From Mustelus asterias (lineage: Eukaryota), in NCBI RefSeq assembly GCF_964213995.1, contig NC_135823.1, forward strand, positions 68,076,001-68,140,000: a DNA stretch of 64,000 bases. The letters are read 5' to 3'. A program made the translations under genes and the position numbers. The notes beneath the pieces were generated by a model. The model was not told the DNA's origin. It did not search any database and saw only the letters and a program-made list of their open reading frames with translations. Shown piece by piece: positions 53,061-63,540 of the stretch. The stretch's first letter is position 1. Each line of letters begins with the position of its first letter.

Positions 53061-54716
53061 CTTTACAGCTAATCAAGTCTTAAAGGTACAGACAATGTGA
53101 GTGGAGGGAGCATTAAGCACAGGTTAAAGAGATGTGTATTGTCTCCAGACAAGACAGCTAGTGAGATTGTGCCATACTTATCCTTCATCCTTACAGGAAT
53201 GTGCCGGTCCTGAATCCCTATCAACTTGCACTTGAAAGCCTCCCACATGCCAGATGTTGATTTGCCCTCAAATCTACATTCTTCAGTTCCTGTCTAATAT
53301 TGTTGTAATTAGCTTTCCCCCAATTTAGCACCTTAACTTGAGGACTACACTTATCTTTATCCATCAGTACCTTAAAGCTTACTGAATTGTGGTCACTGTT
53401 CCCGAACTGCTCCCCTACTGAAACATCGACCACCTGGCCGGGCTCATTCCCCAATACCAGTCTAGTATGGCCCCTTCCCTAGTTGGACTATCTACATACT
53501 GTTTCAGGGAGCCCTCCTGGATGCTCCTTACAAACTCTGCTCCATCCACACCCCTAGCACTAAGTGAGTCCCAGTCAATATAGGGGAAATTAAAATCTCC
53601 CACCACAACAACCCTGTTACTTTTACACCTTGCCAAAATCTGCCTACACATCTGTTCCTCAGTCTCCCGCTGGCAGTTGGGTGGCCTGTAGTAAACCCCC
53701 AACATTGTGACTACACCTTTCCTATTCCTGAGCTCTACCCACATTGCCTCGCTGTATGAGCCCTCCGAGGTGTCCTCCCGGAGTACAGCTGTGATATTCT
53801 CCTTAACCAGTAGTGCAACTCCCCCACCCCTTTTACATCCCCCTCTATCCCGCCTGAAACATCTGGAATGTTAAGCTGCCAATCCTGTCCTTCCCTTAAC
53901 TAAGTCTCTGTAATGGCAACAACATCATAGTTCCTAGTACTAATCCAAGCTCTAAGTTCATCTGCCTTACCTGTTACACTTCTCGCATTGAAACAAATGC
54001 ACTTCAGTTCACCAGACCCTCTCTGATTAGCAATCCCACCCTGCCTGCTGTTTCTCTGAGTCTTACTGGCCCTGCTCTCTCATTCCCCTTCAGCTAATTC
54101 ACCTTTGCTTTGGTTCCCACCCCCCTGCCAAACTAGTTTAAATCCTCCCGTGTGACACTAGCAAACCTCCTGGCCAGAATATTTGTGCCTTTCCAATTTA
54201 GATGCAACCCGTCCTTGTACAGGTCCCATCTGTCTGGAAGACCCAATGGTCCAGATATCTGAAACCCTCCCTCCCACACCAGCTGTTTAGCCACGTGTTG
54301 AGCTGCACTATCTTCCTATTCCTAGCCTCACAAGCACATGGCACAGGGAGTAATCCCGAGATTTCAACCCTCGAAGTCCTGCTTTTTAACTTTCTACCCT
54401 AACTCCCTAAACTGCTGCTGCAGGACCTCATCACTGTTCCTGCCCATGTCGTTAGTACCAATATGTACCACGACCTCTGGCTGTTCACCCTCTCCCTTCA
54501 GAATGCTTTCTGTCCGTTCAGAGACATCCTGGACCCTGGCACCAGGGAGGCAACAAAACATCCTGGAGTCTCTTTCACATCGACAGAAACGCCCATTTGC
54601 ACCCCTAACTATAGAGTCCCCTATAACTATTGCTCTAGTCCTCTTTGTCCTTCCCTGCTTAACAACAGAGCCAGCCATGGTACCACTGCTTTGGTTGCTG
54701 CTGCTGGTATCCCCTG

Positions 54717-59929: not shown

Positions 59930-62900
59930 TGAAGGGCACAAATATCCTGGCTGGGAGCTTTGCTAATGCAATTCGGGGGGGTTTAAACTAGTGTGGCAGG
60001 GGGGTGGGGATCAAACTATTAGGTCTATAAGTGTGGTGGCTGGGGACGAGCTTGGGGCTGGGACAAGGCTGGCAAAGAAGAAGAGCACTCTGGGGGAGGA
60101 CGACCTCACTGAGCCTGGGGGTCTGGAGTGCTTATACTTCAATGCAAGGAGCGTAGCAGGTAAAACAGATGAACTTGGGGCCTTAATGCGCACGAGGAAT
60201 TTGGATGTGGTTGCGGTGACGGAGACTTGGTTGAAAGAGGGACAGGACTGGCAGCTGAATATTCCAGGGTACAAGTGTTTTAGGCGAGACAGAGGAGGGG
60301 CCAAAAGAGGTGGGGGAGTAGCGGTATTGGTTGGAGAGCATATTACAGCGGTGCAGAGGGAGGACAATTCGGAGGAGTCGTGTAGCGAGTCACTCTGGGT
60401 GGAGCTTAGAAACAGGAAAGGCGCAGTCACTATGTTGGGGGTGTACTACAGGCCCCCCAACAGCCCAAGGGAAGTGGAAGAATGGATATGTCAGGAGATA
60501 CTGGATAGGTGCAGGAAATATAGGGTTGTTGTAGTGGGAGACTTCAATTTCCCTGGTATAGACTGGAAATCGCTGAGGGCAGGGACTCTGGATGGTGAGG
60601 CATTTGTAAAATGTGTACAGGAGGGTTCGTTGGAACAATATGTGGACAGCCCAACTAGAGAGGGGGCTATACTGGACCTGGTGCTGGGGAATGAACCCGG
60701 TCAGGTCTTCAAAGTTTTGGTCGGGGAACATGTGGCAAATAGTGACCACAATTCTGTTAGCTTTAGGATAGTGATGGAAAAGGATGAGTGGTGTCCCAAG
60801 GGTAAGGTGTTGGATTGGGGGAAGGCTAACTTTATTGGGATCAGGCAGAAATTGGCAGCTCTTGATTGGGAGAGGCTGTTTGAGGGTAAATCCACATCTG
60901 GTATGTGGCAGTCTTTTAAGGAACGGTTGTTAGGGCTACAGGACAAGCATGTGCCTGTAAAAAAGAAGGATAGGAAGGGTAGGATTAGAGAACCGTGGAT
61001 AACCAGGGAAATTGAGGGACTGGTCAAAAGGAAAAGAGAGGCGTATGTTAGGTCCAAGCAGCTAAAAACGGAGGGAGCTCTGGAGGAGTATAATGAAAGT
61101 AGGAAAATACTCAAACGGGGAATTAGAAGAGCAAAAAGGGGTCACGAAATGTTCTTGGCAGACAGGATTAAGGAGAATCCCAAGGCATTTTATTCATACG
61201 TTAGGAACAAAAGGGTTGTAAGGGAAAAAATCGGACCTCTCAGGGACAAAAGTGGGGACTTATGCTTGGAGCCCAAAGAGGTAGGGGAGATCCTAAATGA
61301 ATACTTTGCGTCGGTATTCACTAAGGAGAGGGATGTGTTGACTGGGAGTGTCTCGGAGGGGAGTGTTGAACCGTTGGAGAAAATCTCCATTACAAAGGAG
61401 GAAGTGTTAGGTTTGTTAGAGAATATAAAGACTGACAAATCCCCAGGGCCTGATGGAATCTATCCAAGGCTGCTCAGGGAGACGAGAGGTGAAATAGTTG
61501 GGCCTCTGACGCAAATCTTTGTCTCGTCACTGGACACAGGTGAGGTCCCAGAGGATTGGAGGATAGCCAATGTGGTCCCGTTATTTAAGAAGGGTAGGAA
61601 GGATAACCCGGGTAATTATAGGCCGGTGAGCTTGACGTCCGTGGTGGGGAAGTTGTTGGAGAAGATTCTTAAAGATAGGATGTATGCGCATTTAGAAAGG
61701 AATAAACTCATTAACGATAGTCAACATGGTTTTGTGAGAGGGAGGTCATGCCTCACGAACCTGGTGGTGTTTTTTGAAGAAGTGACCAAAATGGTTGACG
61801 AAGGAAGGGCCGTGGATGTTGTCTATATGGACTTTAGTAAAGCGTTTGACAAAGTCCCTCATGGTAGGCTAGTGAAAAAGGTTGGATCCCATGGGATAAA
61901 GGGGGAGGTGGCTAGATGGGTGGAGAATTGGCTTGGTCATAGAAGACAGAGGGTGGTAGTGGAAGGGTCTTTTTCCGGCTGGAGGCCTGTGACTAGTGGT
62001 GTACCGCAGGGCTCTGTATTGGGACCTCTGCTGTTTGTGATTTATATAAATGATCTGGAAGAAGGAGTAACTGGGGTGATCAGTAAGTTTGCGGACGACA
62101 CAAAACTGGCAGGACTTGCAGATAGTGAGGAACATTGTCAGAGGCTACAGAAGGATATAGATAGGCTGGAAATTTGGGCAAGGAAATGGCAGATGGAGTT
62201 CAATCCTGATAAATGCGAAGTGATGCATTTTGGTGGGAATAATGTAGGGAGGAGCTACATGATAAATGGAAGAACCATAAAGGGTGTAGAGACGCAGAGG
62301 GACCTGGGTGTGCAAGTCCACAGATCTTTGAAGGTGACGTCACAGGTGGAGAAGGTGGTGAAGAAGGCATATGGCATGCTTGCCTTTATAGGACGGGGCA
62401 TAGAGTATAAAAGTTGGGGTCTGATGTTGCAGATGTATAGAACGTTGGTTCGGCCGCATTTGGAATACTGCGTCCAGTTCTGGTCGCCACACTACCAGAA
62501 GGACGTGGAGGCTTTGGAGAGAGTACAGAGGAGGTTTACCAGGATGTTGCCTGGTATGGAGGGGCTTGGTTATGAGGAGAGAATGGGGAAACTGGGGTTG
62601 TTCTCCTTGGAAAGACGGAGGATGAGGGGAGACTTAATAGAGGTGTATAAAATTATGAAAGGCATAGATAGGGTGAACGGTGGGAAGCTTTTCCCCGGGT
62701 CGGTGGTGACGTTCACGAGGGGTCATAGGTTCAAGGTGAAGGGGGGGAGGTTTAACACAGATATCAGAAGGACATATTTCACACAGAGGGTCGTGGGGGC
62801 CTGGAATGTGTTGCCGGGCAAGGTGGTGGAGGCGGACACACTGGGAACGTTTAAGACTTATCTAGACAGCTATATGAACGGAGTGGGAATGGAGGGATAC

Positions 62901-63456
62901 AAAAGAGTGATCTAGTTTGGACCAGGGAGCGGGGCGGGCTAATTGTTCCTGGTTTCTCGTTTCAAGGCTTCATTCTACGATCATCTTGCTGGTGCCAGTA
63001 CAGAGTGAGACTGCGGATAGTTGGGAACCTGTCTCGGGGGCAGGGGATTCATATGGTGTTCGTGGAAGTGGAAATGACTAGGGTTGGGAAGCATTTTCCG
63101 ATCGGGGCCATTGTGATCTCCTGGACTCGTTTCGATCGCCTCAGGGGGTCGGAGAGGAATTTCCCAGATTTTTTTTTCCCCATATTGGCCCTGGGGTTTT
63201 TCACTCTGGGTTTTCGCCTCTCCCTGGAGATCACATGGTCTGGAATGGGGGGGTGGGGGTAAGTTAATAGGTTGTAATGAACAAAGCATCGTAGCTGTGA
63301 GGGACAGCTCGGTGGATAGGATATTGGTATGTAGATAGGCTGGAAAATTGGGCGGGGATCCTGGATTCAGGATTCAATCCTGGACCGGGGAGCGGCGCGG
63401 GCTTGGAGGGCCGAAGGGCCTGTTCCTGTGCTGTATTGTTCTTTGTTCTTTGTTCT
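59930..63456 (+). mobile_element. Young CR1 LINE: ORF1 C-terminus, intact ORF2 and long 3' UTR
   Basis: ORF1 end GTNILAGSFANAIRGGLN*; (TTCTTTG)n tail; TSD TTGTTGT at 59923-59929 and 63457-63463. Confidence 0.96.
59991..62915 (+). CDS. CR1 ORF2, APE endonuclease plus reverse transcriptase (974 codons; true start uncertain)
   Basis: FNARS, VTETW, YRPP, GDFN, LDLV, SDH; YRPVSL, QHGF, DFSKAFD, GVPQGSVLGP, KFADD; no interruptions. Confidence 0.93.
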   Translation: MWQGGGDQTIRSISVVAGDELGAGTRLAKKKSTLGEDDLTEPGGLECLYFNARSVAGKTDELGALMRTRNLDVVAVTETWLKEGQDWQLNIPGYKCFRRDRGGAKRGGGVAVLVGEHITAVQREDNSEESCSESLWVELRNRKGAVTMLGVYYRPPNSPREVEEWICQEILDRCRKYRVVVVGDFNFPGIDWKSLRAGTLDGEAFVKCVQEGSLEQYVDSPTREGAILDLVLGNEPGQVFKVLVGEHVANSDHNSVSFRIVMEKDEWCPKGKVLDWGKANFIGIRQKLAALDWERLFEGKSTSGMWQSFKERLLGLQDKHVPVKKKDRKGRIREPWITREIEGLVKRKREAYVRSKQLKTEGALEEYNESRKILKRGIRRAKRGHEMFLADRIKENPKAFYSYVRNKRVVREKIGPLRDKSGDLCLEPKEVGEILNEYFASVFTKERDVLTGSVSEGSVEPLEKISITKEEVLGLLENIKTDKSPGPDGIYPRLLRETRGEIVGPLTQIFVSSLDTGEVPEDWRIANVVPLFKKGRKDNPGNYRPVSLTSVVGKLLEKILKDRMYAHLERNKLINDSQHGFVRGRSCLTNLVVFFEEVTKMVDEGRAVDVVYMDFSKAFDKVPHGRLVKKVGSHGIKGEVARWVENWLGHRRQRVVVEGSFSGWRPVTSGVPQGSVLGPLLFVIYINDLEEGVTGVISKFADDTKLAGLADSEEHCQRLQKDIDRLEIWARKWQMEFNPDKCEVMHFGGNNVGRSYMINGRTIKGVETQRDLGVQVHRSLKVTSQVEKVVKKAYGMLAFIGRGIEYKSWGLMLQMYRTLVRPHLEYCVQFWSPHYQKDVEALERVQRRFTRMLPGMEGLGYEERMGKLGLFSLERRRMRGDLIEVYKIMKGIDRVNGGKLFPGSVVTFTRGHRFKVKGGRFNTDIRRTYFTQRVVGAWNVLPGKVVEADTLGTFKTYLDSYMNGVGMEGYKRVI

Positions 63457-63540
63457 TTGTTGTGCATTTTATCAGAGTCTGACGCAAGATGAAATGAATA
63501 TTTCAGTCTATGCCTTCAATCAGATCAATATTAACTTCAA

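Follow-up and report, generated by a model that had tools for sequence, protein, structure and literature searches.

A conserved U_UUA_AAC junction in CR1-type LINEs of Mustelus asterias as a probable −1 frameshift signal joining ORF1 and ORF2

Introduction

In the available text of two reviews, the translation of ORF2 from bicistronic LINE RNAs is treated as established only for L1 and SART1, where it depends on ORF1 translation and yields a separate protein (PMC2881922, PMC3708506). A −1 frameshift is stated for ORF2 of the Dictyostelium elements TRE5-A and TRE3-A in the figure legend of a further review, a legend that gives no shift site or stimulator (PMC5911963). These are two-ORF non-LTR LINEs of the APE type. 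For Paramecium LINEs, either +1 shifting or reinitiation is suggested in the accessible part of PMC5405496.

Defined −1 shift sites are found in several viruses. In Rous sarcoma virus a 0-frame stop directly follows the heptamer, and the yeast L-A virus uses a GGGUUUA site. According to the accessible part of PMC5009743, U_UUA_AAC and G_GGA_AAC rank among the shiftiest sites, and the first of them serves the 1a/1b junction of the coronavirus IBV. The IBV and gag-pol sites use a pseudoknot or hairpin a few nucleotides downstream. In PRRSV, the −2/−1 shift in nsp2, which nsp1beta and PCBP stimulate, is structure-free; the part of PMC4937337 at hand describes a short, low-complexity, C-rich motif after a 10-nt spacer, which is bound by protein and needs a spacer of 9–11 nt but no RNA structure.

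CR1-group elements account for 22–34% of the genome in sharks and rays and are dominant in most vertebrates, as stated in the accessible text of a 2026 survey (PMC13343379), and an esterase ORF1 occurs in the CR1 clade (PMC3905857, in part). No mechanism for CR1 ORF2 translation is given in the available portions of PMC3905857, PMC2734521, PMC4255032 and PMC11835228, and CR1 goes unmentioned in those of PMC5009743. The survey text, as far as accessible, has no word on frameshift, overlap, slippery or translation; its supplement lists 1,003 elements and may show junctions. In the supplement of PMC4316615, two of the 3 TTTAAACTA passages were accessible, neither of them at the junction. The literature searched, which mostly excluded subscription papers, among them the CR1 papers of the 1990s, held no report of a CR1 shift site. 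Those papers, on chicken and turtle CR1, reportedly described closely spaced or overlapping ORFs and may have proposed a frameshift. Here we analyse the ORF1–ORF2 junction of a CR1-type LINE found in a 64,000-nucleotide stretch of Mustelus asterias DNA (the window) and compare it with its relatives in the same genome and elsewhere.

Results

The ORF1 of the window element, on the forward strand, ends GGG GGT TTA AAC TAG (59977–59991). It contains a slippery heptamer, T_TTA_AAC (U_UUA_AAC in the RNA), at 59982–59988 in the X_XXY_YYZ register, adjoined by the ORF1 stop TAG (59989–59991). The ORF2 frame lies at −1 relative to ORF1 and is intact from stop to stop over 982 codons (59967–62915), 975 of them counted from the shift site. 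It matches the Pfam domains PF03372 (aa 57–261; 60135–60749), PF14529 and PF00078 (aa 545–773; 61599–62285), corresponding to an APE-type endonuclease and a reverse transcriptase, and no protease domain is among its Pfam matches. The −1 frame linker between the shift site and the endonuclease (59988–60134) comprises 49 codons with neither a stop nor a Met, and the first in-frame ATG (60186–60188) falls inside the endonuclease domain, 15 codons past the Asn of the NARS motif (60141). Downstream of the stop is a G6-T-G4 tract (59999–60009; G6 at 59999–60004 and G4 at 60006–60009), a candidate linear 3′ stimulator whose conserved part is the G-run from +11. The positions of the heptamer, the opening of the ORF2 frame and the first ATG, as well as the register, are those given in the original prediction, which also placed a G-rich tract within a few nucleotides. 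The 3′ untranslated region (62916–63461, about 545 nt) ends with three TTCTTTG repeats (63439–63461). With the terminal motif as reference, the ORF2 stop comes earlier here than it does in several of the other families (about 3420 nt from the junction, against about 2950–3050 nt). A short 3′ tandem repeat and frequent 5′ truncation are features of CR1-group LINEs, and both are present in the window family; we take the element to be CR1-type, a label based on the original prediction, the esterase ORF1 and ORF2 motifs characteristic of CR1.

The junction was thus read correctly at the outset, but the ORF1 in the window is a remnant: the last 19 codons (59932–59988) of an SGNH-esterase ORF1 and its TAG, at 59932–59991. 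All 39 other best DNA matches start at 59931, and the copy is 5′-truncated at about that position. The frameshift claim therefore concerns the family, a young one (99% identity) of which this copy is a truncated member, as the copy itself cannot make the fusion. Full copies elsewhere in the genome have an ORF1 of 338 aa and the same junction in 30/30 loci, which were counted only once because they are near-identical and had been found with the junction in the query; partial ORF1s are also present among the sister copies. The SGNH esterase domain (PF13472) was found in the ORF1 of a full-length sister copy, L005. The last 30 residues of this ORF1 contain EGSQL where nearly all relatives read DGLHL, so that the esterase Asp and His appear to have been lost in this young, expanding family.

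A second junction is found on the minus strand of the window. It belongs to an older copy (53165–54708), CR1-type but from a different family, that includes the 3′ half of ORF1 and whose linker holds a stop. The junction reads GAT TTA AAC TAG, with the heptamer at 54142–54136, ORF2 in −1 and a G6 at +11 (54125–54120), the whole spanning 54120–54144. Matches with at most one mismatch number 3 in the window, against 1.56 expected; a lone heptamer in one window is within chance, and its significance comes from the comparison of families.

For this comparison, 280 loci of the Mustelus asterias genome were collected: a DNA search supplied 30, a set of seven ORF1 proteins used as queries 210, and 40 were taken by place. 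Six of these proteins have a Leu-Asn end, and this may favour copies with the same ending but not a choice of codon. Anchoring with a profile that lacked the last 12 ORF1 residues yielded 265 distinct contexts, of which 236 have a stop at the expected place; TTTAAAC is still present in 23 of the 29 broken contexts set aside. At 85% identity the 236 copies fall into 12 clusters (16 at 90% and 9 at 80%), referred to below as families, with one vote per cluster.

T_TTA_AAC ends ORF1 in 227 of the 236 copies and is the most frequent form in each of the 12 families; the stop in the 236 copies is TAG in 140, TAA in 95 and TGA in one. Conservation of the heptamer beyond the needs of the protein, the check that the original prediction had proposed, is what the aligned codons indicate at the nucleotide level. 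The Leu codon at −2 is TTA in 12/12 families, compared with 29 of 261 Leu codons in ORF1 (11%), and the Asn codon at −1 is AAC in 12/12, compared with 42 of 100. The preceding codon ends in T in all 12 families while its residue varies (AGT, GAT, ACT, GGT, CGT or GCT, for S, D, T, G, R and A). Two other invariant residues, the Leu at −14 and the Gly at −18, are each encoded by four different codons among the same families. The third base of column −9 is also invariant in 12/12 families, which share ancestry. Little synonymous change is seen over codons −10/−9 as a pair (TTT GCT, located some 25 nt ahead of the heptamer), possibly a 5′ element or the result of that shared ancestry. The overlapping G_GGT_TTA, put forward as a second slippery site, occurs in only 102 of the 236 copies and is not a general feature.

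Changes of frame at the DNA level are rare. One base has been lost inside the heptamer in 1 of 265 copies, and ORF1 and ORF2 are joined in frame in only three copies, all of them with other stops. Two sets of loci on small contigs deviate from the common arrangement. In L044, L055 and L060 an extra G before the heptamer places ORF1 in frame with ORF2, and ORF1 contains stops too; these look like a decayed copy amplified by duplication. In L505, L506, L513, L516 and L527, which are repeated, the stop after the heptamer has been lost (GAG or GAC), and they are probably duplicated DNA.

The endonuclease motif could be located in 201 of the 236 copies, in the −1 frame in 177, in the 0 frame in 17 and in +1 in seven. 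By family, ORF2 lies in −1 and is open through the heptamer in 10/10 scorable clusters, as the window had led one to expect, with heptamer–endonuclease spacers of 116–227 nt; two clusters were unscorable. Among the 177 copies, the linker contains a stop in 13 when read in −1, compared with 175 in the 0 frame and 176 in +1. The −1 frame mostly opens 3–7 codons before the ORF1 stop (39 in one cluster), which confines the shift to the heptamer region. The absence of an AUG ahead of the endonuclease holds for the window family and for 7/10 clusters; a linker Met is present in the other three, at unrelated positions, and TAATG in one more. That cluster, C8 (L032, L035, L047, L049, L051–L053), has TAATG at the junction together with the heptamer, and is the only one of the 12 families with the SART1-type UAAUG stop-start, the window family having TAGTG. 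The −1 codon overlapping the stop is ATG in one family, GTG in one (the window family), ATT or ATA in four and a non-start codon (GAA, GAG, GAT, GTT or AAT) in six. Since the start of L1 ORF2 is reported as independent of its AUG in the accessible part of PMC5009743, a missing AUG alone proves little for CR1-type ORF2. The longest pyrimidine run in the linkers is 3–6 nt, and no polypyrimidine tract is present.

Downstream of the heptamer, positions +11 to +14 read GGGG in 212 of the 236 copies, compared with 1.1% at an arbitrary position, and +11 is where the G-run begins in most families. In five of seven folded junctions from outside this genome the G-run has its first base at +11, and in the other two at +8, A-rich contexts included. 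The run encodes differing residues in the −1 frame, and the constraint therefore acts on the RNA. What is retained of the G-rich tract of the original prediction is thus a single G-run at constant spacing; neither a hairpin nor a G-quadruplex showed a conserved fold, and several outside families have just one G-run in A-rich sequence. Local folding of 19 junctions gave a z score of −1.36 for the window family and values below −2 in 1/19, the C content of the 100 nt after the heptamer is only 8–20%, and Rfam has no match at the junction. A long-range partner was also sought, the YRPP C-run and the 3′ tail included, and no common site emerged. Local folds and distal partners thus gave no conserved stimulatory hairpin 5–9 nt downstream, and the low C content makes a pseudoknot less likely. 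What was found is a linear conserved motif after a 9–11 nt spacer, the arrangement of the arterivirus type. The G-run could be an unstructured stimulator located at the mRNA entry channel of the ribosome and bound by a protein, a reading to which we give slightly less than an even chance.

The search was extended to distant relatives. The close ORF1 homologues (n = 36), of which the named ones come from sharks and rays except for one labelled bacterial, mostly end in Leu-Asn when full-length. Clustering at 50% left 149 representatives, and in 81 of them the esterase block is close to the end; 42 of these finish in Leu-Asn, nine in Gln-Gly-Asn, five in another residue plus Asn and 25 otherwise, so that 56/81 are Asn-ending and 25/81 are not. 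The tail after the esterase motif ranges from 24 to 39 aa, yet the Leu-Asn end is kept, and its named bearers include snake, lizard, turtle, eel and sturgeon proteins. The residue before Leu-Asn can have a T-ending codon in 41/42, while 20% of the background cannot (p about 0.001 if the proteins are independent). The Gln-Gly-Asn enders form a divergent group with this ending at any tail length (P0088, P0094, P0097, P0100, P0101, P0102, P0104, P0145 and P0157), and such an ending would fit a G_GGA_AAC shift site, which is the prediction for this group. P0115 ends in Lys-Asn, and P0129 and P0168 in Glu-Asn.

At the nucleotide level, pattern scans requiring AAACTA gave 281 loci, 14 of them CR1-like and many from two assemblies; 13 of the 14 read T_TTA_AAC and one G_TTA_AAC. 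A profile search that did not depend on the motif, run on two of those assemblies, returned 26 matches that supplied 15 distinct junctions, of which 13 read T_TTA_AAC, one T_TTA_AAG and one has an unrelated ending, with the endonuclease in −1 in nine, in 0 in three and absent in three. The heptamer is kept in relatives with 30–44% endonuclease identity (30–41% for the four best-covered or named outside families), and a Met precedes NARS in 2/7 outside linkers. Related loci were not found in metagenomes, viral contigs or plasmids, DNA of the Gln-Gly-Asn enders did not come up in the searches, and none of 42 viral pattern matches was taken as CR1-like. Several entries with bacterial labels (L368, L408, L420, L449 from G001, L462 from G002, L380 and the protein P0017) have CR1-type LINE content, pointing to contamination with host DNA. 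Naturally fused ORF1–ORF2 proteins were sought as well; the one long match, P0259, was rejected because its ORF1 sits after an unrelated reverse transcriptase, and the lack of others is a weak negative.

Discussion

The same heptamer, stop and G-run recur in 12 lineages and in distant relatives, and for this reason ORF2 is likely to be made by a −1 slip. In the mechanism that we consider probable, tRNA-Leu on UUA and tRNA-Asn on AAC would slip in tandem onto UUU and AAA, so that a minority of ribosomes moves one base back at the heptamer. Ribosomes that do not shift would terminate one codon further on, releasing the esterase ORF1p of 338 aa, and shifted ones would read a linker of 39–76 codons followed by the endonuclease and the reverse transcriptase, giving a fusion of about 1,310 aa in the window family. 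The shift would set a high ratio of ORF1p to ORF2p, as in gag-pol. Comparative evidence therefore sides with the gag-pol-like ORF1–ORF2 fusion first proposed for the window.

Three other routes to this arrangement have to be weighed. The most substantial, though unlikely, is termination-coupled reinitiation of the type documented for L1 and SART1 in the accessible text of reviews (PMC2881922, PMC3708506), in which ribosomes would restart near the UAR at an AUG, at a near-cognate codon or at no particular codon, a separate ORF2p would be made, and the conserved bases would serve termination or restart. The ATG, GTG and ATT/ATA codons that overlap the stop in half of the families, and the Met residues in some linkers, are what it would use, but the other six families offer only non-start codons at this place. 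It also leaves unexplained the stop-free linker, which extends up to 76 codons and is open in −1 only, as well as why the T and the TTA, two codons ahead of the stop, are invariant, as tandem slippage demands. That T_TTA and AAC are both needed fits two tRNAs slipping during elongation better than a restart that follows termination.

It is less probable still that Leu-Asn-stop is kept for the sake of the ORF1 protein or by shared ancestry, with an incidental slippery look. The families are indeed related, and columns −10 and −9 likewise show little synonymous change; however, protein-level selection does not account for an invariable TTA, an invariable AAC and a T in third position whichever of six residues is encoded, the Leu-Asn end stays constant over tails of varying length, and ORF2 would still require an entry route. 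That the two frames are joined in the RNA, whether through splicing to ORF2 or through slippage of the polymerase, seems the least credible of all. The linkers lack the polypyrimidine tract that splicing would call for, and T3A3 is short for polymerase slippage. Joined RNA should moreover have been retrotransposed, an expectation at odds with the single one-base loss in the heptamer and the three in-frame joins described above. RNA from four runs, in the form of assembled contigs, which cannot show absence, had neither a GT..AG joint nor an indel at the junction.

Tandem slippage at the heptamer is thus the preferred reading, and the junction likely represents a known class of −1 frameshift signal that occurs here in a new setting, combined with an unexplained, structure-free G-run. 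It shares with IBV the heptamer and its register, and with retroviral and LTR gag-pol the joining of a structural or chaperone ORF to a polymerase ORF. It differs from both in the immediate 0-frame stop, in the absence of a protease domain match in ORF2 and in having no conserved structure downstream. The structure-free design and the spacing resemble PRRSV, whose motif, in contrast, is C-rich, has known binders and accompanies a different shift site; in the CR1-type junction a G-run is the candidate and only the −1 frame is open. L1 and SART1 likewise have a bicistronic RNA and an ORF2 dependent on ORF1 translation, but make separate proteins. TRE5-A and TRE3-A are like the CR1-type element in type and in the stated −1 shift, and have another host and another ORF1; the CR1-type signal has a defined heptamer, stop and G-run, conserved among CR1-type families of animals.

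If the frameshift is true, CR1 ORF2p bears an esterase ORF1 at its N-terminus, ORF2 models begun at the first Met cut the endonuclease, and constructs for CR1 retrotransposition must retain the junction. The G-run is a candidate for a new kind of stimulator. More tentatively, and with less confidence than we attach to a protein bound at the G-run, the LINE that dominates in sharks, reptiles and other animals might make its replicase as a gag-pol-like ORF1–ORF2 fusion by means of an ancient, structure-free −1 signal. This signal would consist of U_UUA_AAC, or of G_GGA_AAC in the case of a sister group, followed by a stop and by a G-run at +11 that a trans-acting protein recognises, possibly ORF1p itself in a feedback control, and would amount to a frameshift outside viruses that protein stimulates without RNA structure.
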